From: Minisyncoccota bacterium
Lineage (GTDB): Bacteria; Patescibacteriota; Minisyncoccia; Phycocordibacterales; CAJBRS01
Reading direction: 5' to 3'
DNA: 64,000 bases
Assembly: GCA_017881075.1 (NCBI GenBank)
Contig: JADGRH010000003.1
Coordinates: forward strand, 64,682-128,681
The notes below the pieces were generated by a model that worked only from the letters and a program-made list of their open reading frames with translations, was not told the DNA's origin and made no database searches. Every line of letters begins with the position of its first letter. Position 1 is the first letter of the stretch. The position numbers were made by a program, and so were the translations under genes. Below are positions 1,584 to 30,464 of the stretch, in pieces.

Positions 1584-3242
1584 ATGACTCAAGCAGAAGC
1601 ACTGGATATCTTAAAGATGGGACACAATGTATTTATCACCGGCGCAGCTGGAAGTGGCAAAACTCACACTCTGCGTGCCTATATTGATTATTTGAACAAG
1701 AGCAATGCGAGCGTTGCCATTACCGCATCCACGGGAATTGCGGCTACGCACATTGGTGGTAGCACCATTCACTCATGGAGCGGCCTGGGAGTCCGCGATT
1801 CTCTTTCCGAGCAGGACTTAAGTGAAATGGAAGAGCGACAATATCTCTGGCGACGATATGATCAAGTAAGGATTTTAATAATTGATGAAGTTTCAATGCT
1901 CCATCATTTTCGATTTGATCTTTTGGATAAAATTTGCCGATTTTTCAAAAGAAACGATGCCCCCTTCGGGGGCATGCAAATAGTGCTTTGCGGTGACTTC
2001 TTCCAACTGCCGCCAGTCACCATAATGGGGGAGCCGGAGGCAAGCTTCATTCATAAATCAGATGTTTGGGAAGAGATGAATTTGAAGATCTGCTATCTCT
2101 CCGAACAGCATCGCCAAAATATTGAAGACGAATATTTTAAAATCCTAAATGAGATCCGCGGGAATGATGTCGGCACGGATACATACGAACTCCTACAATC
2201 CCGTCTTAACCAAGAATCCGAATCAAAAATTCCGCCGACTCGTCTCTACACTCACAACATTGATGTTGATGCCGTGAATAACCGCGAGCTCGGAAAGATT
2301 GCGGGGGAGGCAAAAATTTACGCCATGTCTTCCAAAGGAAGGGCCGCTATAGTGGAGACTTTGAAAAAGAGTTGTCTTTCACCGGAGAAACTTTCTCTTA
2401 AAATTGGAGCCAAAGTAATGTTCGTTAAAAATAATTTTGAGAAACATTATGTTAATGGAACATTGGGGATAGTTGTGGCTTATGATTCAGCCGGTTATCC
2501 TATTGTGGAAACTCTTTCTGGAAAGAGGATACTGGCCACACCGGAGAGCTGGATGATAGAAGAAGAGGGCAAGATTAAAGCCGAGATCAATCAAGTGCCG
2601 CTCCGGCTCGCCTGGGCTATTACTGTGCATAAAAGCCAAGGAATGAGCCTTGATGCGGCAGAAATGGACCTATCAAAATCTTTCATTAAAGGGATGGGAT
2701 ATGTGGCTCTTTCGCGAGTGCGTAGTTTAAAAGGCTTGAAGCTACTCGGTATCAATCAAATGGCTCTGCGAGTAGATGAAGGTGTTTTTGAATACGATCA
2801 AACTCTCCGATCACTTTCAAAACAAAGCCAAAGTGAGTTAAAGAAGATGACCGCAAGCGAAATGAAAAAAGAGCAGGGAGAATTTCTGGCGAAAGTTGCT
2901 GGCTCCAAAAAAATTAAGGAAGAAAAAATAGCCACTCATCACAAAACCAAAAATCTTTTGCTCCAGAAGCTCTCTTTGGAAGAAATGGCAGAGGCGCGTG
3001 GGATGACCACCGAGACTATTGTCAGTCATATTGAGAAATTACTAGAGGAAGATCCGTCGTTTGATGTTCAGTATCTTTTCAATGCTAATTTTACTGATGA
3101 GCGTTTTCAGAAAATTGAAAAAGCTTTTGAAAAATCTTTAGCCAAGAATGGCGACTATCGTTTGGCGCCGGTGCGAGGTCTGCTTGGGCCCGATTTTGAT
3201 TATTTGGAACTGCGCATAGCGAGGTTGTTTTTGGGAAAGTAG
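1584..3242 (+). CDS. PIF1/RecD-family ATP-dependent DNA helicase
   Basis: Walker A GAAGSGKT, LIIDEVSM (motif II), FFQLPPV, AITVHKSQG, C-terminal HhH-like tail; typical PIF1-like SF1B motif order. Confidence 0.8.
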   Translation: MTQAEALDILKMGHNVFITGAAGSGKTHTLRAYIDYLNKSNASVAITASTGIAATHIGGSTIHSWSGLGVRDSLSEQDLSEMEERQYLWRRYDQVRILIIDEVSMLHHFRFDLLDKICRFFKRNDAPFGGMQIVLCGDFFQLPPVTIMGEPEASFIHKSDVWEEMNLKICYLSEQHRQNIEDEYFKILNEIRGNDVGTDTYELLQSRLNQESESKIPPTRLYTHNIDVDAVNNRELGKIAGEAKIYAMSSKGRAAIVETLKKSCLSPEKLSLKIGAKVMFVKNNFEKHYVNGTLGIVVAYDSAGYPIVETLSGKRILATPESWMIEEEGKIKAEINQVPLRLAWAITVHKSQGMSLDAAEMDLSKSFIKGMGYVALSRVRSLKGLKLLGINQMALRVDEGVFEYDQTLRSLSKQSQSELKKMTASEMKKEQGEFLAKVAGSKKIKEEKIATHHKTKNLLLQKLSLEEMAEARGMTTETIVSHIEKLLEEDPSFDVQYLFNANFTDERFQKIEKAFEKSLAKNGDYRLAPVRGLLGPDFDYLELRIARLFLGK

Positions 3243-6793: not shown

Positions 6794-7705
6794 ATGGATC
6801 AATCTCAAAACTCCACTAGAGAATATTCTGCCATTAGCCCAACATCTCGCAGCTCATTTTGGATGAAAACTTTCACCGACATTCCTTACGTGCGGGAAAT
6901 ATACGACGAGCTGGAAAAAGGGAAGCAGAGTGGAGCGGAAAGCAAAATCAGGGATTACGGAATCAATCATGTTGGTCTCTCAAGTATTGCTCCATATTTT
7001 GAGGCGAGATACTTAATCATTAATAGATTATTGAAAGAAGTTGGAGCGACACAGATTATTGAATTAGCTTCCGGCCTCACTCCTCGGGGTCTTGAGCTTA
7101 CCAAAGATCCAAATATCACTTTCATCGAATTAGACCTCCCTGATGTAATCGAAGAGAAAAAGAAAATAGTGGAAAATATTATAAGAGAGCATAAAATCGG
7201 CGATCGTAACAATTTGTATCTGGAAGCAGGAAGCGCCCTGGAAGAAGCGGATATCATGAAAGCCGCCTCTCATTTTGATGAAAAGAAAGAGATCGCTATT
7301 ATTAATGAAGGATTACTTCGCTATCTGAAAAGAGACGAACAGGCAAAAATGGCTCAGGCGATCTTACCCGTGCTTCAAAAATTCGGGGGAGTATGGATCA
7401 CCCCTGATATTGGCATCAGAGATAAAATGCTGGCAGGACAAGCGAAATTGTCGCCGATATTCATAGACAGAACTAAAAAGTTGGAAAAAATGACGGGCGC
7501 TGGAAATTTTTCCGACAACCTTTTCGCCGATGCTGCAGAAGCCAAGGCAATCTATGAAAAACTAGGATTTGAGATAGAGATGCATACTTACTCTGAAGTA
7601 TCCGATCAACTCGTTTCACCCACTAAACTCGGTCAACCAAAAGAGATTACAGACTCACTTATGGAATGGAGCAAGGTCTTTGTGATGCACCCAAAGACCA
7701 AATAA
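6794..7705 (+). CDS. class I SAM-dependent methyltransferase, leucine carboxyl methyltransferase (LCM)/TcmP-like
   Basis: IIELASGLTPRGLEL resembles the LCM motif VV.LGAGLDTR; acidic residue after beta2 (IELDLPD); 303 aa; leaderless-style start 6 nt after TAGTATTA. Confidence 0.5.
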   Translation: MDQSQNSTREYSAISPTSRSSFWMKTFTDIPYVREIYDELEKGKQSGAESKIRDYGINHVGLSSIAPYFEARYLIINRLLKEVGATQIIELASGLTPRGLELTKDPNITFIELDLPDVIEEKKKIVENIIREHKIGDRNNLYLEAGSALEEADIMKAASHFDEKKEIAIINEGLLRYLKRDEQAKMAQAILPVLQKFGGVWITPDIGIRDKMLAGQAKLSPIFIDRTKKLEKMTGAGNFSDNLFADAAEAKAIYEKLGFEIEMHTYSEVSDQLVSPTKLGQPKEITDSLMEWSKVFVMHPKTK

Positions 7706-10390: not shown

Positions 10391-10750
10391 ATGATTTTTA
10401 ATATGACTAAGATTGAGGATCTGATTACAAGAGTGACTGCATTTAGAGATGATAGAGACTGGAAACAGTTCCATAATCCCAAAGATAATGCTATCGGATT
10501 AGTTCTGGAAGCCTCGGAGGTTTTAGAGCTATTCCAGTGGAAAAATAAAGAAGAAATTGACAAGTATATAAAATCACATAGCGAAAATATTTCTGACGAA
10601 CTAGCGGATGTTATGTATTGGGTTTTATTAATGTCACATGACTTGAATATTGATATCGGAAAGGCTATAGAAAAGAAACTTAAGAAAACAGAAGAAAAAT
10701 ACCCTATAGAAAAATCCAAAGGTAATCATAAGAAGTACACAGAACTTTAA
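10391..10750 (+). CDS. MazG-like nucleotide pyrophosphohydrolase
   Basis: DWKQFHNPKDNAIGLVLEASEVLELFQW followed by ELADVMYW .. L: MazG/NTP-PPase EExxE-type helix pair; 119 aa. Confidence 0.7.
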   Translation: MIFNMTKIEDLITRVTAFRDDRDWKQFHNPKDNAIGLVLEASEVLELFQWKNKEEIDKYIKSHSENISDELADVMYWVLLMSHDLNIDIGKAIEKKLKKTEEKYPIEKSKGNHKKYTEL

Positions 10751-10754
10751 TCTT

Positions 10755-12608
10755 ATGATTCTATATAAAAATAATCTAAAGGATTTTAAAATTCACGTTG
10801 ATACTAATCAGATCGGGGATTTAATCGAGAAATCTTTTAGAGAAAAATTAGGGCACAAAGTTGCTCCAAATGAAAAAAGGTCATGGACTAATTCTATGTC
10901 GTTTATGGAGAAAATAGTCAGAAGGGCTGATCTTTCGGATACTTGCGGAGTTATGTTGGAATATATTATTCCAAACACTTCTAACAGAATCGACTTTTTA
11001 ATTTCCGGGGAAGACGAGAAAGGGAACAAGAATTTTATAATTATTGAATTGAAACAATGGGAAACATCAGAATCTACTGATAGAGATGGTGTAGTAAGGA
11101 CTTTTGTGGGAGGAGGAGTACGCGAAACTACGCACCCATCTTACCAGGCCCATTCCTATAAATTGTTTTTAAGTGACTACAATGAAAATATTGATTCTGG
11201 CATTCTTTCACCATACGCTTGCGCGTATCTGCATAATTATAAAGAGCGGAGTCCGGAGCCTCTAAAGGCTCAAATATATGAATCTGTTATTAAGGTAGCG
11301 CCAGTTTATTTTAAGGACGATTATGAAAAATTGGAGCAGTTTTTGCATAATTATGTTAGGTTCGGAAAAGGAGAAGAAATCTTGTATCAAATTGAAGCCG
11401 GCAGAATAAAACCTAGCAAAAAACTTATTGAGCATATTCAAAAAATGTATGAAGGAAACCAGGAATTTATATTACTGGATGAGCAAAAGGTGGCATATGA
11501 GACAGCTCGATCTGTAGCAAAGAAAGTTAAAGAAAAATCTGTCGTAATTATAAAAGGTGGTCCAGGGACGGGTAAATCTGTAATCTCAATGAATTTATTG
11601 GGAAGCCTATTAAAGGATGAACTTAATGTAAACTTTATTGCCCCTAACTCTGCCTTTAGAGAAGTAATGATTCATAGATTAGCAAGGAAGGAGACTAAAT
11701 TAAGGTTAAAAAACTTGTTTAAAGGCTCTGCTGGTTTTGTAAATGCCAAGAAAGACACATTTGATACTTTAATAGTGGATGAAGCACATAGATTAAAGAA
11801 AAAAGGTGCTTATCAATACAAGGGGATAAATCAGATAGAAGATATCGTTAATTCTGCTAGAACGTCTATCTTTTTTGTCGATGATAATCAGATGATTCGT
11901 CCAGACGATATAGGTTCAGTTCAGGAGATTAAAAGAGTGGCTGATAAAAATAAGGCAAGAATTTATGAAATAGAATTAGTCGCCCAATTTAGGTGTGCTG
12001 GGGCAGAAGGTTATCTTAATTGGCTCGACAATACATTACAGATTAAAGAGACAGCGAATTTTGATGGATGGGAGCAAAAAGATTTTGAGTTTAAGATTTT
12101 TAATGATCCTAACGACTTAAGGAAAATGATAAAAGAAAAGCATGATAAAGGATTTAATGCTCGAATTCTTGCTGGCTATGCTTGGAAGTGGACAAGTGTA
12201 GGGGAGGGCAATAAAAGTGGAGAAGTTGAAGATGTCTTAATCCCCGAATTCGATTTCAAAATGCCGTGGAATGCTCGACAAATTGGAACAACTTGGGCGG
12301 TTGATCCAAAAGGTATTGATCAGGCAGGATGCATTCATACTTCACAAGGTCTGGAATTTGACTACGTTGGAGTTTTGGTAGGCAATGATTTACGTTTTGA
12401 TTCCAAAAAACTTGACTACCATGCTCACTGGGTATCCTACAAAGATACGACGGGGAAAAAAGGGCTGAAAAATAACCCGGAAGAATTAACTAAATTAGTA
12501 AAAAATATCTACAAGGTTCTTATGAGCAGGGGTATGAAGGGATGCTATGTTTATTTTACTGACAAAGAAATGGAGAGATATTTTAAATCACGCTTAGGTA
12601 TCAAATAA
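10755..12608 (+). CDS. nuclease-helicase: N-terminal PD-(D/E)xK-like fold + P-loop SF1-like NTPase + DUF2075-type C-terminal region (Schlafen-helicase / Nhi-like architecture)
   Basis: N-term RIDFLI .. IIELKQWE (D .. ExK); Walker A VVIIKGGPGTGKSVIS; Walker B/DEAH LIVDEAHRL; 4-nt gap after the MazG-like gene (operon). Confidence 0.65.
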   Translation: MILYKNNLKDFKIHVDTNQIGDLIEKSFREKLGHKVAPNEKRSWTNSMSFMEKIVRRADLSDTCGVMLEYIIPNTSNRIDFLISGEDEKGNKNFIIIELKQWETSESTDRDGVVRTFVGGGVRETTHPSYQAHSYKLFLSDYNENIDSGILSPYACAYLHNYKERSPEPLKAQIYESVIKVAPVYFKDDYEKLEQFLHNYVRFGKGEEILYQIEAGRIKPSKKLIEHIQKMYEGNQEFILLDEQKVAYETARSVAKKVKEKSVVIIKGGPGTGKSVISMNLLGSLLKDELNVNFIAPNSAFREVMIHRLARKETKLRLKNLFKGSAGFVNAKKDTFDTLIVDEAHRLKKKGAYQYKGINQIEDIVNSARTSIFFVDDNQMIRPDDIGSVQEIKRVADKNKARIYEIELVAQFRCAGAEGYLNWLDNTLQIKETANFDGWEQKDFEFKIFNDPNDLRKMIKEKHDKGFNARILAGYAWKWTSVGEGNKSGEVEDVLIPEFDFKMPWNARQIGTTWAVDPKGIDQAGCIHTSQGLEFDYVGVLVGNDLRFDSKKLDYHAHWVSYKDTTGKKGLKNNPEELTKLVKNIYKVLMSRGMKGCYVYFTDKEMERYFKSRLGIK

Positions 12609-12820: not shown

Positions 12821-12910
12821 TCCTATTTATGCACGGCCTTTATCTAAAAAATGGCCAATGGACCAAAGAGAGAGCAGTAAAAATATCTGCGTATCATTTC
12901 ACTTATGGAT

Positions 12911-12932
12911 AATCCGGCCTGCTCTGCCACGC
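12911..12932. repeat. left arm of 22-bp terminal inverted repeat AATCCGGCCTGCTCTGCCACGC
   Basis: revcomp matches 13320..13342 at 21/22; shares the AATCCGGCC core with the three cassette terminators. Confidence 0.6.
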
Positions 12933-13319
12933 TTGTATTGCCCTCTACTTTTTTTATGGCATACTTAAAAAAGAAATCCATGACAGACCTAATCTGATCT
13001 TTAAATATAAACCCTATTTTGCAGGTATGAAGAGACAATAAAGCATCGATTAAAAAATAATATGACCAATAAATATAGCAATAATCTTGTTACATAGAAT
13101 TTCAAATTTACTTAAAATATGGCTCTAATCAAGAACTAATTAAGATATGCACAGCTTATCCACTGGTAAGCTATTTACAAAACTGCTAGATTATGATACA
13201 TTAAGAGAGGAATATTTCTTTTTCCCCTCTTGCTGATTATAATAAGCTTTTCTTTCATAATAGGAAAAATAATATTAGCTAAATACTTGACTCCAAAAAT
13301 TTTGGAGAGTATTATGCAA

Positions 13320-13342
13320 GCGCGGCAGAGCAGGCCGGATTA
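13320..13342. repeat. right arm of the 22-bp inverted repeat GCGCGGCAGAGCAGGCCGGATTA
   Basis: see 12911..12932; arms flank ~390 bp of AT-rich non-coding DNA. Confidence 0.6.
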
Positions 13343-13359
13343 TCAATAAATTAAATTAT

Positions 13360-13761
13360 ATGACCAACGACAAATCTTTTTTGGAGGATCTCTATACTGA
13401 CAGTGGGGGATTCGACCGCGAACGGGTAGTGCGGGTGCTCCAAACCATACTAACCATTCAGCGGGGCGACCATAAAGTCTTCTTTAAAAAAGAGGCAACA
13501 CTAGAAGCTGCGGACAAAATTTTGGCTTATGCGTTAGTAAAAAAGCTTTTAAAGACAGAGGGGGTAACTGAAACGAGTAGTGTCTCGGGAAAGGAACTGA
13601 AGAAGCAAACGGGTGTAAAGTCCGGGACGGTCGATTTTACAATTAAAAAACTTAAAGAGGAAGATGGTCTGCTTGTTGGCAGCGGTAGCAATTATGAAAT
13701 ACCAGCACACAAAGTTGAAGACATCTTAGAGCGTCTTGAAAAATGCGCTTCCAAAAAATAA
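13360..13761 (+). CDS. hypothetical protein with C-terminal winged-HTH-like motif
   Basis: SVSGKELKKQTGVKSGTVDFTIKKLKEEDGLLVG resembles a wHTH recognition helix/wing; first gene of a tight 4-gene operon. Confidence 0.4.
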   Translation: MTNDKSFLEDLYTDSGGFDRERVVRVLQTILTIQRGDHKVFFKKEATLEAADKILAYALVKKLLKTEGVTETSSVSGKELKKQTGVKSGTVDFTIKKLKEEDGLLVGSGSNYEIPAHKVEDILERLEKCASKK

Positions 13762-14206
13762 ATCTATGGAAAATAACATAAAAAAAATACTCGGAGAAAT
13801 ACTCACATCCATAAAGAGCCTTGAAAAACGAGTTACTCTCATAGAAAGCAAGACACCGAGCATGAGTACACCATCACATGATCTTCCCATTGCCTCGAAG
13901 AAGATGTCGATAAAGGAGTTCCTAATTGATCGCTCTCCAGCAAATGGAGTACAAACAACTCTCGCGGTCGCATATTATCTAGAAAAATATGACAAGATCT
14001 CGCCATTTAATGCCAGTGACATAGAGAAAGCATTTCGTTCCGCTAAGGAACCAGTGCCCAACAATATCAATGATAAAGCAAATATGTGTATTAAAAATGG
14101 TCATTTAATGGAAGGAGAGGATAAGAAAGACAATATGAAAGCGTGGGTAGTCACTCGAAGCGGAGAACAATACGTTCAGGAAAAATTTGATCGTTATAGT
14201 CATTAA
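13736..14206 (+). CDS. hypothetical protein; C-terminal domain shared with the next gene
   Basis: 26-nt overlap with the upstream gene; C-terminal pattern (hydrophobic stretch .. SPFNASD .. K.G .. KAWVVTRSGEQY) parallels 14236..14784. Confidence 0.4.
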   Translation: MKNALPKNKSMENNIKKILGEILTSIKSLEKRVTLIESKTPSMSTPSHDLPIASKKMSIKEFLIDRSPANGVQTTLAVAYYLEKYDKISPFNASDIEKAFRSAKEPVPNNINDKANMCIKNGHLMEGEDKKDNMKAWVVTRSGEQYVQEKFDRYSH

Positions 14207-14235
14207 AAATAAAATTATTCACTAATATAAATATT

Positions 14236-14784
14236 ATGTCTGAAGCAGAAATAGTAGAAATCGTAGGGAAAATTGTTACTGCACTCACTCCTCTTTCTCA
14301 TGAGGAACGACAGAGGGCGGTGCAAGCGTCTTTAAATGTATTTGGTGAATCCATGCTCAGGTCTACACAAAGAAAAGACGAACTCAATGAAATTCCCTCT
14401 GCATTTAGTGAACGCGCGCGGATATGGATTAAACAGAACGAGCTTTCTTTGGAAAATTTAGAACAAATTTTTCATATTACTGATACTGGAGCAGAATTGA
14501 TTATTCAAGAAGTGCCGGGAGGAAAGGATAACAAACCCAGGGTGCTAAATGTGTATGTTCTTTCTGGCGTAGCTTCCCTACTCACCTCAGAAAATTCTAA
14601 TTTCGACGACAAAGTTGCAAGAACCATATGTGAATCATTTGGATGTTACGATCCAACAAATCACACTAAATACCTAAAGAAAAGTAAATTCTTTACAGGA
14701 TCCAAAAAAACAGGATGGACCTTGACTGCTCAGGGTTTAAAACATGCAGCCATGTTAGTTAGAGAACTGAGTAAGCCCCAATAG
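14236..14784 (+). CDS. hypothetical protein; C-terminal domain paralogous to the previous gene
   Basis: C-terminal .. VYVLSGVASLL .. NFDDKVARTI .. TGWTLTAQGLKHAA aligns with the preceding protein's tail. Confidence 0.4.
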   Translation: MSEAEIVEIVGKIVTALTPLSHEERQRAVQASLNVFGESMLRSTQRKDELNEIPSAFSERARIWIKQNELSLENLEQIFHITDTGAELIIQEVPGGKDNKPRVLNVYVLSGVASLLTSENSNFDDKVARTICESFGCYDPTNHTKYLKKSKFFTGSKKTGWTLTAQGLKHAAMLVRELSKPQ

Positions 14785-14786
14785 AT

Positions 14787-15527
14787 ATGATTTTCACATT
14801 TAAAAATATTCCGATCAATCTTTCTGAAAAATTGGTTGAGGAATACTTGGAAATAAAGAAACGCCATTCAATGAGTGATTGGGGCCCAAGTCAATTAAAA
14901 GGCGGTAGATTTGCAGAAGCTATGTTACGCATTTTCCAACATTTGCTCGGTATTTCTATTACACCATTTGGGACCAACATTCCAAACAAAGACCGTATTT
15001 TAAATGCTGTAAAAATTCACCCGTCATTGGATGACCACATTCGTCAAAAAGTAGCACCTCTTATAAGACTTCTTCTAGATTTTCGTAATAATCGAGATGT
15101 AGCACACCTCGGAGGATTCAATGCAAATAGCATGGATACTCTTTTTGTGATGACAACAGCGACATGGATTTTGTGTGAACTGATCCGTGTTTATGGAGGG
15201 CAAAGTATGGACACCGCTCAAAAACTAGTAGACTCACTTTCCGTTAAAGAGTATCCAGTGCTAATGGAGTTCGAAGGAGAGCTCTTTATTACTCGACACA
15301 ATCTCAACGCAGAACAAGAAGTGCTAATATTTTTGTATAAAAATCGTAAAGCAGGCTACAATTTTTTGTCTTCAAAGACAAAGGACAGCAATTCTTCACG
15401 TTTTAAGAAAATTTTAGAGAAAATGGTTGCGGTAAAGTTCATTGGCAGCAAGGCAAATCAGTACTTTATCATGCCTCGTGGAATCGAGCGTGTAGAAAAA
15501 GAACGCTTATTGATCTATTCAAACTAG
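14787..15527 (+). CDS. hypothetical protein with HEPN-like R-x6-H motif (RNNRDVAH), candidate RNase
   Basis: 3-nt gap from the previous gene; motif LLLDFRNNRDVAHLGGF fits the HEPN Rx4-6H signature within a predicted helical context; inference only. Confidence 0.35.
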   Translation: MIFTFKNIPINLSEKLVEEYLEIKKRHSMSDWGPSQLKGGRFAEAMLRIFQHLLGISITPFGTNIPNKDRILNAVKIHPSLDDHIRQKVAPLIRLLLDFRNNRDVAHLGGFNANSMDTLFVMTTATWILCELIRVYGGQSMDTAQKLVDSLSVKEYPVLMEFEGELFITRHNLNAEQEVLIFLYKNRKAGYNFLSSKTKDSNSSRFKKILEKMVAVKFIGSKANQYFIMPRGIERVEKERLLIYSN

Positions 15528-15612: not shown

Positions 15613-16083
15613 ATGCAAAAGGACTTTACCTTTCAATTAATAAAGGGAAAAATCAGCGAAACTATATTTGATCAGATGTTTCGAGAAGCAGGGGAGTTTA
15701 CAGTTATCCCCTTTGGTTATGAAGCTTTAGTCCCGGAAATTGCTCAGCTTGCTCGTTCATTAGAACGCAAGGAAGTTCTGGACTCAATTAGGAATAGTCC
15801 TGATTTTGCACTGGTCTCTCATAGTCAGAAAAAGGTATTTCTAGTTGAAGTGAAATATAGGTCGCATTTACACGAAGATGACGTGTTAAATATTGCTCAG
15901 ATGGTTCACGACAGATGGAAACTAGCGTGGTTGTTCATTGCTACTCCGGAAGGATTCTATTTTGATAGTTGCTCGGATGTCTTAAATACTAAGACCATTA
16001 ATAAACTTAAACCAACATGGATCAATGCCGAACTCCAGGAAAAGTATTTAGCAGTAATGAATAAGTTTCAAGTTAACCATTAA
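15613..16083 (+). CDS. PD-(D/E)xK restriction-endonuclease-fold protein
   Basis: E(A)L .. PDFALVSH .. VFLVEVKYR = canonical E .. PD .. (D/E)xK arrangement; 156 aa. Confidence 0.5.
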   Translation: MQKDFTFQLIKGKISETIFDQMFREAGEFTVIPFGYEALVPEIAQLARSLERKEVLDSIRNSPDFALVSHSQKKVFLVEVKYRSHLHEDDVLNIAQMVHDRWKLAWLFIATPEGFYFDSCSDVLNTKTINKLKPTWINAELQEKYLAVMNKFQVNH

Positions 16084-16102
16084 GTAGAGGTAAGAATTTC
16101 TT

Positions 16103-16861
16103 ATGTTCTCAGATCCAATCATTGAAAATTTAAAGTATTACGTTTATATACTTGTTGATCCGAGCAATAATAAGCCTTTTTATATTGGAAAAGGAATAGG
16201 AAATAGGGTTTTTTCCCATCTAAAAAATGAAATTGAAGACGAGTCTAAGATTTCATTAAAACAAGCGCTTATTAAAAATATTCAGGATCAAGGGAAAGAT
16301 GTTGAGATATACATAGTACGACACGGTTTAAATGAGAAGGAGGCATTTGAGATTGAGGCGACACTTATTGATTTTATCCAACTTAGAAATCTTACTAATG
16401 AAATAGTAGAGCACGACTATAAGGAAGAAATACCAGCTAAAAATCTGGCTAATATTGTTTTAGGACATCATGCGGGAGAAAGGGGGCTTATGACGCTAAA
16501 TGAAATACTCCAGTTGTATGGTGCAGAAGAGGCTAATATTACCGACCCAGTAATAATAATTAATATAAATCGAAAATATAAACGGGGCATGAGTCCGAAT
16601 GAAATATATGAAGCAACTCGAGCATCTTGGGTCATAAGCAAAGATAGGTCACAGAAAGCTAAATTTGTTCTCGCATCATTTCGTGGAATAGTAAAAGAAG
16701 TTTTCTATGTTAATCATTGGCAACAATCTAAGAATTCAAACCGCTTAGAATTTGAAGGAGGTGTTGCTCAGTTAGAGATTGCTGAAAAATATAGAAACAA
16801 AGCTATAACTAATTATTTGAAGACGGGGGCACAAAACCCAATTAGATACGTAAATTGTTAG
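16103..16861 (+). CDS. GIY-YIG nuclease domain protein with ~150-aa C-terminal extension
   Basis: YYVYILVDPSNNKPFYIGKGIGNRVFSH .. E (GIY/YIG with Arg, His and Glu); 20-nt gap after the PD-(D/E)xK gene. Confidence 0.6.
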   Translation: MFSDPIIENLKYYVYILVDPSNNKPFYIGKGIGNRVFSHLKNEIEDESKISLKQALIKNIQDQGKDVEIYIVRHGLNEKEAFEIEATLIDFIQLRNLTNEIVEHDYKEEIPAKNLANIVLGHHAGERGLMTLNEILQLYGAEEANITDPVIIININRKYKRGMSPNEIYEATRASWVISKDRSQKAKFVLASFRGIVKEVFYVNHWQQSKNSNRLEFEGGVAQLEIAEKYRNKAITNYLKTGAQNPIRYVNC

Positions 16862-16963
16862 ATTAAATTGTACTATTCTCATGCCAGATGAATTGGAAAA
16901 TCAGGAATTAAAGGGGTCAGAAGTCATTTTTATATTAAATTTTATCTTTCTGTTGTATTAATC

Positions 16964-17107
16964 ATGGACTCCGATGAAATCTTAGAATTAGTTAAAGATG
17001 GCGTGATAGAGCCGGATCAGGTGGAAGATTTTCAGAATTTGGATGAGGAGATCCAGCAAATGGTGGCGGATGGGGATTTGGATGCAGATGAGGCGTTGAG
17101 TTTATAA
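16964..17107 (+). CDS. 47-aa highly acidic small protein (MDSDEILELVKDGVIEPDQVEDFQNLDEEIQQMVADGDLDADEALSL)
   Basis: not in the ORF track (under 60 aa); strongly acidic; sits between the GIY-YIG and NYN genes. Confidence 0.3.
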   Translation: MDSDEILELVKDGVIEPDQVEDFQNLDEEIQQMVADGDLDADEALSL

Positions 17108-17157
17108 ATTTATCTTTTCTTGACGGGGAATTCATCTGCAAGTTCTATTCTATATGA

Positions 17158-17661
17158 GTGGAAAATGAGTTTAAGAATCTTGCTTTTATAGATGGACAGA
17201 ATCTGTATATGGGTACGTCAAAGCGAGAGATCGATCCGTGGGAAATTAACCTTACCCGATTCTGTGTATATCTGGATGAAAAATACAATGTCGGTAATGC
17301 CTATTATTTTTTAGGATATGTGCAGGAGGCAAATCAAGAACTCTACGAAGAAATACAAAAGGCTGGTTTCTTGCTAGTATTTCGAGAACATAATCCAGCG
17401 ATGATTGGGAAGAAAAAAGGAAATGTGGATTCAGATATTGTCTTTCATGTCATGAAAAATCTATACAAGAAAGAGAATTTTAAAAAGATAATCCTTGTTT
17501 CTGGAGATGGTGACTATAAATTACTGGTTGATTTTTTGATAGCAGAGAACCGATTCGAGAAGATATTGTTTCCGAATAGAGAATTTGCGTCTTCTTTGTA
17601 CAAGAAACTCGGTTCGGAATATTTTGATTACTTAGAAAATATAAAGACATATATCACATAA
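17158..17661 (+). CDS. NYN-domain (PIN-like, LabA/YacP-like) ribonuclease
   Basis: AFIDGQNLY .. D .. VSGDGDY signature of NYN domains; terminator hairpin follows at about 17671..17708. Confidence 0.7.
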   Translation: MENEFKNLAFIDGQNLYMGTSKREIDPWEINLTRFCVYLDEKYNVGNAYYFLGYVQEANQELYEEIQKAGFLLVFREHNPAMIGKKKGNVDSDIVFHVMKNLYKKENFKKIILVSGDGDYKLLVDFLIAENRFEKILFPNREFASSLYKKLGSEYFDYLENIKTYIT

Positions 17662-17823
17662 AAAGAAAAGGGCTCCTAAGGCACTTACACCTTTCGGATC
17701 CCTTTTCGTCTGAATATTTAAATAATATCGAAATCTGCGAATCTGTCAAACCAAAACTTCATAAATTCTTTATATGAAAGCACCTTTTATGTTAATATGG
17801 AATAAATAATCATCTTTAAACCT

Positions 17824-18138: not shown

Positions 18139-18379
18139 AAATAAAAGGGTCAGGAGACATTTTTATGGATTGATTGATCCCAATAATCGAAAGGACCACA
18201 ATAAGGAGGACCAATATTCCTATACAGATGAACAGTTTCTTTTCTTCGAGCAAAATCCGTAAGATCTTCATAAAGATTTTATCACGGAATAAAAAGGGCC
18301 AGTTTTTTGACAATATAAGGATTCTGGATCCTAAGGGGATATAAAAAATAAAAAGCGCCTGATTGGGTAATGAATCCAA
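18131..18379 (-). CDS. small membrane protein
   Basis: 82 aa, hydrophobic. Confidence 0.3.
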   Translation of the reverse strand: MDSLPNQALFIFYIPLGSRILILSKNWPFLFRDKIFMKILRILLEEKKLFICIGILVLLIVVLSIIGINQSIKMSPDPFIST

Positions 18380-30009: not shown

Positions 30010-30061
30010 GAGTCATTAAACGGACTTGTCTTATTTAAAAAATTTTATATAATAGACTCTT

Positions 30062-30453
30062 CTTGAATCGGGTAATTGCTCCGCCACCTAAAAAGGGCGG
30101 GGAGGAAAGTCCGAACACAGGCCCTTCACCAAAATTGGTGAAGGGAAGAGTAGCGGGTAATACCCGTCTGGAGCAATCCACGAGGTGCGAACAGAGACGA
30201 ACCGGTTAAGTCCGGGTGAAACGGCTAAATCCTTACTTCTGTGCAAGGCCGCGCGCCAATTTTGTCCGCTAGAGGCGGTTACAAAATTGAGCGTCCCGAG
30301 ATTTTCGAGGGATTGATCCTTCGACAAGCTCAGGGCACTCAATCTTGCAGCCACCTGCAGTGGGCAAGATTGGTGAGTGCCGCTTGACTCCGAGAGTAAT
30401 CGAGGAGCTAGATAAATAATTATCGATAACAGAATTCGGCTTATAGATTCAAG
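30062..30453 (+). ncRNA. rnpB: RNase P RNA (bacterial type A)
   Basis: P4 GGAGGAAAGTCCG.ACACAGG and 3' ACAGAATTCGGCTTAT conserved blocks; P1 pairing CTTGAATC/GATTCAAG; the minus-strand ORF 30088..30504 is spurious. Confidence 0.85.
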
Positions 30454-30464
30454 AAGACAAATCA

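Follow-up and report, generated by a model that had tools for sequence, protein, structure and literature searches.

A conserved 47-residue acidic micro-protein among nuclease genes at the end of a low-GC defence-type island

The segment described here (positions 15613–17661) lies in a 64,000-nucleotide stretch of contig JADGRH010000003.1, hereafter the window, and forms the right-hand, distal end of an island of low G+C (GC) content that extends from position 10391 to at least 17661. As the first-pass annotation of this DNA had pointed out, open reading frames (ORFs) for three different nuclease folds—namely PD-(D/E)xK, GIY-YIG, and NYN—fall within 2 kb on the plus strand, and a short ORF encoding an acidic protein of 47 residues, called micro47 below, is placed between the second and third of them. 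Comparison with other loci showed micro47 to be characteristically the last co-directional gene of diverse DNA-targeting defence operons, and showed the segment to close a mosaic defence island, which is composed of independent modules and is not one multi-nuclease system. An overall account in which independent modules are accompanied by an accessory, partner-independent micro47 is put forward here tentatively. The features of the segment and its immediate surroundings are as follows.

15613..16083, plus strand: 156-aa stand-alone PD-(D/E)xK-fold protein (family motif; AlphaFold2 model and Foldseek)
16103..16861, plus strand: predicted PD-T4-3/CMoRE-type GIY-YIG endonuclease, 252 aa (PADLOC, Pfam, PDB)
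16909..16933, no strand assigned: left copy of the 25-nt direct repeat TAAARGGGTCAGRAGWCATTTTTAT (second copy at 18142..18166)
16964..17107, plus strand: micro47, a 47-aa hyper-acidic micro-protein made of two repeats of about 22 aa (homologues, AlphaFold2 model)
17158..17661, plus strand: NYN (LabA/DUF88-like) protein, 167 aa, GTG start (Pfam NYN)
17665..17707, plus strand: probable intrinsic terminator, a hairpin followed by UUUUCGUCU
18142..18166, no strand assigned: right-hand copy of the 25-nt direct repeat, at a distance of 1233 nt from the left-hand one

The micro47 family and its genomic setting

With 17 aspartate or glutamate residues among its 47 and a single lysine, micro47 carries a net charge of about −16, in keeping with the strongly negative charge proposed in the first-pass annotation, although its acidic fraction of 36% is slightly under the "about 40%" given there. 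The ORF had also been described as unannotated, but gene callers do call it in public assemblies carrying this contig. Micro-proteins of about 47 aa are routinely missed or left unnamed in annotation. A word-indexed cluster search of 5.8 billion proteins yielded 90 clusters of relatives, almost all of exactly 47 aa and 66–90% identical (most 70–90%), with 12 invariant and 11 nearly invariant columns in the family alignment and with the acidic positions conserved. When 1.84 billion representatives were searched exhaustively with an HMMER profile, no more than 50 members emerged, nearly all of them stand-alone and 40–70 aa long; fusions that might reveal the function of micro47 were considered, but the few extended or fused forms look like products of read-through or decay.

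Between loci, the DNA around the ORF is unrelated, and the ORF itself varies mainly at synonymous positions. Over 24 intact copies, the mean proportion of synonymous differences (pS) was 0.80, a saturated value, and the mean proportion of nonsynonymous differences (pN) 0.145, with majority-base frequencies of 0.86, 0.93, and 0.61 at codon positions 1, 2, and 3, respectively. Conservation and the ratio of nonsynonymous to synonymous substitution rates (dN/dS), which had been singled out earlier as the check on this ORF, bear it out: the 90 clusters and a median dN/dS of 0.09 (computable pairs) indicate strong purifying selection. Because variation follows codon position, synonymous sites are saturated, and flanks are unrelated, the micro-ORF can be neither a chance ORF nor an antisense artefact, nor can it be an RNA or DNA element, and no Rfam family matched there. 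On the evidence of its codon-level variation, micro47 is a genuine, ancient, and strongly constrained protein-coding gene under purifying selection.

The AlphaFold2 model of micro47, with a predicted local distance difference test (pLDDT) score of 91, contains four short helices (residues 3–11, 17–24, 28–35, and 41–46), and the sequence is built of two repeats of about 22 residues having the form EILxLVxDGxIxxDxxxxF, of which rare relatives have three. Its GC content at third codon positions (GC3) is 0.50. No Pfam, NCBIfam, PHROG, or PADLOC family matched micro47 at threshold; the best match in a PDB profile search was caltractin, at a non-significant E of 0.33, and the best Foldseek match in the PDB was to ParB fragments at E 1.7, with no neighbour among the solved DNA mimics. 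An EF-hand or dockerin-like identity was considered and is unsupported, the PDB sequence and fold searches having given nothing usable. A related repeat (DEEIFEIAKDNDLDLTEALEL, MDEELFELAKENDLTLDEAQEV) is carried by other small acidic ORFs (L005, 3–311; L016, 11278–11343; loci are cited by working number where needed), and one such ORF sits directly 5′ of a micro47 gene. These related repeats hint at a wider superfamily of acidic helical-hairpin repeats.

Scanning of 185,579 species genomes gave 16 matches to micro47. All 15 confident ones (L006–L020) are chromosomal and lie on contigs of Patescibacteria or of metagenome-assembled genomes (MAGs) classified no further than "bacterium," whereas the sixteenth (L021) is a weak, partial match on a Sphaerobacteraceae contig; 15 further loci came from metagenomes. 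The groups carrying the gene are Nomura-, Kaiser-, and Paceibacterota and Saccharibacteria; as far as sampled, micro47 is confined to Patescibacteria. One MAG contains two copies, situated in two different islands (L006 and L010). No match was found in IMG/VR viral contigs, GenBank/INPHARED phages, or PLSDB plasmids, in searches in which the BLAST low-complexity filter may hide weak matches, and a phage or plasmid origin was rejected on this ground.

The gene 5′ of micro47 is co-directional in about 27 of 29 loci, and in almost all of these is separated from it by 2–50 nt or slightly overlaps it; the genes on the 3′ side, by contrast, vary in family and strand from locus to locus. In the window, the upstream gene is that of a predicted type IV (CMoRE-type) enzyme. 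The families assigned by Pfam upstream of micro47 at the other loci are as follows.

L007: type I HsdM/S/R, then a 248-aa gene without family
L014, L017: HsdR with a YgjP-like peptidase
L027, L034: HsdR C-terminal domains
L035: HsdS
L031: type ISP
L016, L026: Eco57I-type methylase-nucleases (type IIG), once with a PLD-SNF2 helicase
L009/L010, L015, L019, L032: type III Mod/Res
L011: Cas4-like PD-(D/E)xK protein
L012, L020: DUF2779
L020: RmuC
L023: Mrr-like protein (weak match)
L025: HEPN AbiU2
L008: superfamily 1 (SF1) helicase–restriction endonuclease, then YceG

Recognisable restriction or nuclease genes thus stand upstream of or near micro47 in at least 18 independent loci, and the juxtaposition of a small acidic protein with nucleases, to which the first-pass annotation had drawn attention, proves to be a systematic association. 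The neighbour families of the roughly 30 loci are nonetheless many and unrelated, with none common to more than a few loci. An earlier view joined the micro-protein with the three nucleases in one functional unit, and the comparison does not sustain it: in the 8 kb on either side of micro47 at about 30 other loci, no homologue of the GIY-YIG, NYN, or 156-aa protein of the window was found, and none of them recurs next to the micro-ORF elsewhere. For this reason, the earlier proposal of a cognate immunity protein or antitoxin of the GIY-YIG or NYN protein is likewise unsupported. A conserved nuclease–micro47 module was also sought by comparing each island protein with all micro47 loci by tblastn, and rejected; the only match was a MazG-like gene of L033 (9008–9337), which is 67% identical to that of the window and lies 1 kb 3′ of micro47. 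The sequence of micro47 tracks the host lineage and not the type of neighbour, as L012 (DUF2779 neighbour) and L019 (type III neighbour) share the IQDFEALDSEIQQLV variant. As far as the available libraries and papers show, both the micro47 family and the rule that places it at the tail of restriction operons are undescribed.

The nuclease genes and the mosaic island

The GIY-YIG protein (16103–16861) matches Pfam LEM-3_GIY-YIG (1.2e-15; 58.3 bits against a cut-off of 27) and PADLOC PD-T4-3 (1e-53), and aligns end to end, over the GIY-YIG and C-terminal domains, with the CMoRE structures 9U7U and 9U75 (1.3e-34). Alignment to residues 11–104 of 9U7U keeps the motifs YVY, FY[IV]GKG, NRVF.H, and E.EA.LID, and in the C-terminal domain, residues 114–217 and 211–249 align to residues 107–206 and 219–258 of 9U7U, respectively. 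Judged by these alignments, the gene is that of a full-length PD-T4-3/CMoRE homologue, one of the modification-dependent restriction enzymes of type IV. PD-T4-3, recently renamed CMoRE, is described as a single-component type IV enzyme that degrades DNA containing 5-hydroxymethylcytosine (5hmC) or glucosyl-5hmC (PMC12923530). The GIY-YIG enzyme of the window should, alone, cut DNA with modified cytosine.

For the 156-aa protein (15613–16083), the best Pfam match, Tn7_TnsA-like_N, is sub-threshold (19.8 bits against a cut-off of 26.5), and searches of PADLOC, NCBIfam, PHROG, and PDB sequences gave no match. Its family comprises 195 homologue clusters, and residues E16, P63, D64, E79, and K81, which constitute the catalytic PD-(D/E)xK motif (E79-x-K81), are invariant across 45 members. 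The best PDB matches of its AlphaFold2 model (pLDDT 86) in Foldseek are Hjc resolvases, influenza PA-N, and RecU, all of the PD-(D/E)xK fold, with E values of 1.6e-3 to 1e-2 and Foldseek probabilities of 0.95–1.0; because TM-scores are only 0.36–0.46, the fold match is limited to the alpha-beta-beta-beta-alpha-beta core. On motif and model together, the protein is accepted as a PD-(D/E)xK-fold member of an uncharacterised family. Its relatives elsewhere stand alone in defence or mobile contexts—that is, with SIR2-HerA/Pif1, with Fic/RadC/methyltransferases, or with Shedu SduA, a transposase, and a serine recombinase—and at the loci inspected never adjoin a GIY-YIG gene.

The NYN protein (17158–17661) matches Pfam NYN (PF01936) at 2e-13 (51.5 bits against a cut-off of 24.2) and PDB 2qip at 2.4e-4, and its translation contains the conserved aspartate motifs FIDGQN, GNVDSD, and SGDGDY. 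In public gene calls, the protein starts at ATG 17209 and has 150 aa, thereby losing the first catalytic aspartate in FIDGQNL, whereas homologues align from residue 1 of the version starting at GTG 17158, the only one to keep the FIDGQN aspartate. Its homologues form 4848 clusters, the top 120 being 73–84% identical and 164–203 aa long, and the named ones being Kaiser-, Nomura-, Moranii-, and Paceibacterota. At six inspected loci, these relatives occur in two distinct contexts, either beside SecG and RNase J or beside conjugation-like genes, and none of the six contains micro47. By its homologues, the NYN gene can be placed in a very common, highly conserved Patescibacteria family of ordinary chromosomal contexts.

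The roughly 7-kb nuclease-rich island envisaged in the first-pass annotation is recovered by GC, GC3, Pfam, and PADLOC as a low-GC, defence-type island of about 7.3 kb. Its GC content is 0.33–0.37, compared with 0.42–0.52 in the flanks, and its GC3 is 0.27–0.36, compared with 0.49–0.62 in the flanking TspO, deoxyhypusine-synthase-like, DUF5069, and PAP2 genes; the change is seen at the left edge, where the TspO gene just 5′ of the MazG-like gene has a GC3 of 0.58. The remaining features of the island are as follows.

10391..10750, plus strand: MazG-like nucleotide pyrophosphohydrolase (Pfam MazG-like 4.7e-18; GC3 0.33), which opens the low-GC island
10755..12608, plus strand: DUF2075/Schlafen-group-3 helicase with an extended N-terminus (Pfam SLFN-g3_helicase 4.5e-92)
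13360..15527, plus strand: four tightly packed co-directional ORFs (133, 156, 182, and 246 aa) without family

The helicase also matches PADLOC PDC-S41 (7.6e-21), AbiO (1.2e-15), and Nhi (1.7e-15), and is a candidate nuclease-helicase defence protein. The MazG-like gene lies 4 nt 5′ of it. An N-terminal D...ELK motif of the helicase (IDFLI...IIIELKQWE) resembles the PD-(D/E)xK motif, a likeness from which a nuclease might be inferred. The island is split by a non-coding gap of 540 bp between the helicase and the ORFs starting at 13360. Within this gap, an imperfect inverted repeat of 68 nt has arms at 12892–12959 and 13293–13360, which are 76% complementary and 333 nt apart; it could be a miniature inverted-repeat transposable element, an insertion sequence remnant, or the junction of two island halves. 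None of the four ORFs of 13360..15527 has a significant match in Pfam, PADLOC, NCBIfam, or PHROG; their GC3 is 0.32–0.35 in three and 0.43 in the first (13360–13761). Placed between two defence modules, they may represent an undescribed defence system.

The strong hairpin at 17665–17707, which comes directly after the NYN stop and leads into a U-run, folds at −19.4 kcal/mol (z = −4.5), a stability that 0 of 200 shuffles reached, and a consensus scan of the plus strand from 15.6 to 17.7 kb found no further terminator-like site. Because the sole terminator-like site follows the NYN gene, the four genes of 15613–17661 could be co-transcribed, with the terminator probably closing the transcription unit. 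The modules of the island are nevertheless regarded as independent, since each nuclease gene is found elsewhere without the others. They would be (1) the MazG-like protein with the DUF2075/Schlafen helicase, (2) the four genes without family, (3) the 156-aa PD-(D/E)xK protein, (4) the PD-T4-3/CMoRE-type GIY-YIG enzyme, (5) micro47, and (6) a CPR-typical NYN gene with its terminator, where CPR denotes the candidate phyla radiation.

To judge by indirect signs, the host is probably a member of the Patescibacteria (CPR). The nearest relatives of the island genes are CPR proteins. Elsewhere in the window, proteins are 50–55% identical to genes in the few CPR loci compared; window proteins mostly lack an NCBIfam match, and the S1 protein is short. 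A class A RNase P RNA at 30060–30459 scores 113 bits against a gathering score of 100, and seven tRNA genes are present in the window; the low RNase P RNA score is consistent with a divergent, CPR-like host. A Pif1/RecD-like helicase encoded at 1584–3242 of the window (PADLOC PDC-S68, RecD_like) is 53% identical to the Pif1 gene of L037 (2888–4204), which adjoins SIR2-HerA and a homologue of the 156-aa PD-(D/E)xK protein. The same accessory genes, namely Pif1 and the 156-aa homologue, recur in differing arrangements.

Rearrangement around micro47 and possible roles of the protein

Truncated and degenerate copies of micro47 are found beside intact ones. In L007, a truncated copy (7159–7209) located 8 nt after the HsdR stop consists of codons 1–14 (nt 1–42) followed by a stop; the 248-aa gene comes next, and then a full copy 840 nt beyond the truncated one. 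In L022 (about 2800–2900) and L034 (568–671), codons 16–47 (nt 46–144) are fused directly behind an HsdR C-terminal fragment, and L022 has a full copy 1.3 kb upstream of its truncated one. These two independent junctions (L007; L022/L034) lie within about 4 nt of each other. In L036, codons 22–47 remain; the reading frames of L019 and L020 shift near codon 35, and that of L031 is interrupted by a stop. An attachment (att) site or the insertion of cassettes inside micro47 is kept as no more than a rival explanation, as only L007 and L022/L034 share a breakpoint and the other truncations break elsewhere.

Large serine recombinases (Resolvase, Recombinase, and Zn-ribbon domains) are encoded on the opposite strand 4.5–8 kb upstream of micro47 in 7 of about 16 long loci (L007, L008, L009/10, L016, L017, and L026). 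The proteins have about 445 aa and are 54–67% mutually identical, except that of L026, which has 497 aa and is only about 35% identical; their coordinates include 1079–2425 in L008, 2326–3672 in L017, 1827–3320 in L026, 1–1198 in L016, and 1368–2699 in L040. The recombinase of L040 is equally similar to the others but belongs to an island without micro47, and the window contains no large serine recombinase of this family, so that a role of the recombinase as a specific partner of micro47 was rejected. The mobile-element genes found 3′ of micro47 comprise an IS200-type transposase, an IS3-like pair, and an HTH_17 excisionase-like gene. In the window, micro47, the NYN gene, and an ORF for a 104-aa membrane protein are bracketed by the two copies of the 25-nt direct repeat, none being expected from 100 shuffles, and among 46 loci the repeat occurs only in this genome. 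It could have been left by an insertion or could serve for the binding of a protein; an RNA structure was also considered, and no stable fold common to both copies was obtained.

With respect to mechanism, micro47 may be an acidic, DNA-mimic-like, partner-independent modulator of DNA-targeting defence enzymes. This recasts the DNA-mimic suggestion of the first-pass annotation as partner-independent and is the reading favoured here, although as a mechanism it remains doubtful. Micro47 would be co-expressed with whichever restriction enzyme or defence nuclease lies upstream, and its small, rigid, carboxylate-covered four-helix body would compete with DNA by occupying a DNA-binding surface, either that of the defence enzymes themselves or that of one conserved host DNA-binding protein. 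Encoded in cis, it would restrain the host's own enzymes and damp self-damage, as a form of restriction alleviation or safety catch, and would not be the cognate immunity protein of one nuclease. The constancy of micro47 next to neighbours of differing folds means that it cannot be an immunity protein co-evolving with them; it must act on something common to all contexts, the simplest candidate for which is a DNA-binding function. Ocr and ArdA are described as acidic DNA mimics by which type I restriction enzymes are blocked (PMC3439906, PMC2731889), and Ocr as also blocking the bacteriophage exclusion (BREX) system (PMC7261183).

Several points weigh against such a mechanism. No structural or sequence match in Foldseek and sequence searches against the PDB ties micro47 to DNA mimicry. 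Phages and mobile elements carry the known DNA mimics as a means of overcoming the restriction of their hosts, whereas micro47 was not found in the viral contigs, phage records, and plasmids searched; DNA mimics are, moreover, usually larger and fast-diverging. The identity of 70–90% despite saturated synonymous sites argues instead for one precise conserved partner. In the window, furthermore, micro47 is not the last gene, lying 102 nt after the GIY-YIG gene and being followed by the NYN gene and the terminator.

The main rival explanation, which we consider rather unlikely, is that micro47 is a backbone or boundary gene of mobile CPR defence islands and marks a junction of module exchange, its link with restriction being positional; the gene could then be a homology anchor, could contain a recombination site, or could encode an accessory (for instance, a directionality factor) of the large serine recombinases. 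The constant location of micro47 at the 3′ edge of variable cargo, the truncated or degenerate copies at junctions (L007, L022/L034, L036, L019, L020, and L031), the recombinases upstream and mobile-element genes downstream, and the direct repeat around micro47, the NYN gene, and the 104-aa ORF in the window would all fit this explanation. It does not explain, however, why the protein is conserved while synonymous sites are saturated, which points to selection on the protein; DNA identity between copies, at about 70–75%, is too low for homologous exchange across lineages; and only two junctions share a breakpoint, while the same recombinase family occurs without micro47 in L040 and is missing from the window. 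A more far-reaching reading, considered unlikely, makes micro47 an accessory of restriction and defence operons throughout the CPR: either a universal cis-encoded acidic safety catch that tunes many unrelated DNA-cutting immune enzymes by one shared mechanism or, more radically, the conserved terminal gene and recombination junction of an integron-like system for the shuffling of defence cassettes. In its integron-like version, cassettes would be shuffled between the divergent large serine recombinase and micro47, and the truncations at nt 42–46 in two independent loci hint at such a junction.

Somewhat less probable than the main rival is a small acidic protein unrelated to defence, either metal-binding or an adaptor of a conserved machine, that happens to be located at a hot spot for defence islands. 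Very strong conservation across CPR classes would suit a conserved cellular partner, the GC3 of micro47 resembles that of host genes and not that of the island, and the gene upstream in L008 is the housekeeping YceG/MltG; the repeats also contain D-G-x-[IL] loops, to which the weak, non-significant caltractin match may be added. Against this stand the rare and patchy occurrence of micro47 (50 of 1.84 billion proteins; 16 matches in 185,579 genomes), which a core gene would not show, the downstream flanks that differ between loci and so define no single conserved hot spot, and the MAG with two copies in different islands. A 2-kb toxin–immunity module, with micro47 as the cognate immunity protein or antitoxin of the adjacent GIY-YIG or NYN protein, is largely refuted and very improbable. 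Its appeal lay in the common strand, in the position between both genes with no terminator-like site before the end of the NYN gene, in the recurrence elsewhere of a position 3′ of a nuclease gene, and in the small, acidic, helical character shared with Im9- and barstar-type inhibitors. However, the surroundings (8 kb) of about 30 other micro47 genes contain neither a GIY-YIG nor an NYN homologue, and the inspected NYN loci, in both of their contexts, are without micro47; PD-T4-3/CMoRE is described as single-component (PMC12923530); and identity of 70–90% beside unrelated folds is the opposite of what is seen in co-evolving immunity pairs.

The CMoRE homologue, the NYN protein, and the small PD-(D/E)xK protein are in themselves ordinary, defence islands and single-gene restriction enzymes being well known. 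What is unexpected is a protein of 47 residues that remains 70–90% identical although synonymous sites are saturated, and whose gene follows restriction genes of types I, ISP, IIG, III, and IV as well as other nuclease genes at their tail. Should micro47 modulate these enzymes, restriction would have a new regulator or inhibitor of very small size, possibly usable as a tool and relevant to the question of how ultra-small symbiotic bacteria can maintain many restriction systems and yet not kill themselves; should it mark a recombination junction instead, a new way of shuffling defence genes would be indicated.

Comparison with known systems

Colicin Im7/Im9 and barstar are small, acidic, helical proteins whose genes are located directly 3′ of that of a nuclease and which are specific for, and co-inherited with, one nuclease. 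Micro47 is also small, acidic, helical, and encoded just 3′ of a nuclease gene, but follows many unrelated enzymes and co-occurs with none in particular. Lambda Ral and Rac Lar are very small, prophage-encoded restriction-alleviation proteins that act on type IA enzymes only. If the modulator proposal holds, they and micro47 would be alike as very small proteins that modulate type I restriction-modification and do not cut DNA themselves; micro47 differs from them in having no detectable homology and in accompanying many enzyme types.

The SHOCT and SHOCT-like families (PF09851, PF22746) share with micro47 a short helix-turn-helix-like repeat having the pattern L-x-x-L-x-x-x-G-x-I-x-x-x-E. The match of micro47 to Pfam SHOCT-like_DUF2089-C (PF22746), at 24.4 bits, is below the cut-off of 27 and covers only residues 32–47. 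SHOCT, which has no known function, is typically found appended to the C-terminus of a larger protein (PMC3581485), whereas micro47 stands alone as two such repeats in tandem and is much more acidic.

The predicted GIY-YIG enzyme of the window resembles E. coli PD-T4-3/CMoRE (PDB 9U7U, 9U75) in its whole-length alignment, in the motif series YVY...FYIGKG...R...E, and in the C-terminal domain, which senses modified cytosine in CMoRE. Identity is only moderate, however, and the protein comes from a probable CPR genome and not from an enterobacterium, with its gene flanked by the PD-(D/E)xK gene and micro47. Cleavage of 5hmC- or glucosyl-5hmC-containing DNA and protection against T-even-like phages are known for the E. 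coli proteins only (PMC12923530).

DNA mimics of the Ocr and ArdA type are characterised by carboxylates arranged like the phosphates of B-DNA and by binding in the DNA-binding groove of the target enzyme; for micro47, modelled as a monomer, no similarity in sequence or fold to either of them was detected. The mimics are phage- or plasmid-borne; micro47 belongs in cis to restriction operons of the host itself, at whose end its gene stands, and is far more conserved in sequence. Ocr has 116 aa, compared with the 47 aa of micro47 (PMC3439906). What micro47 has in common with Ocr and ArdA is an extreme negative charge, a lack of enzymatic motifs, and a context of type I or other restriction systems or of BREX-like systems (PMC3439906, PMC2731889, PMC7261183).

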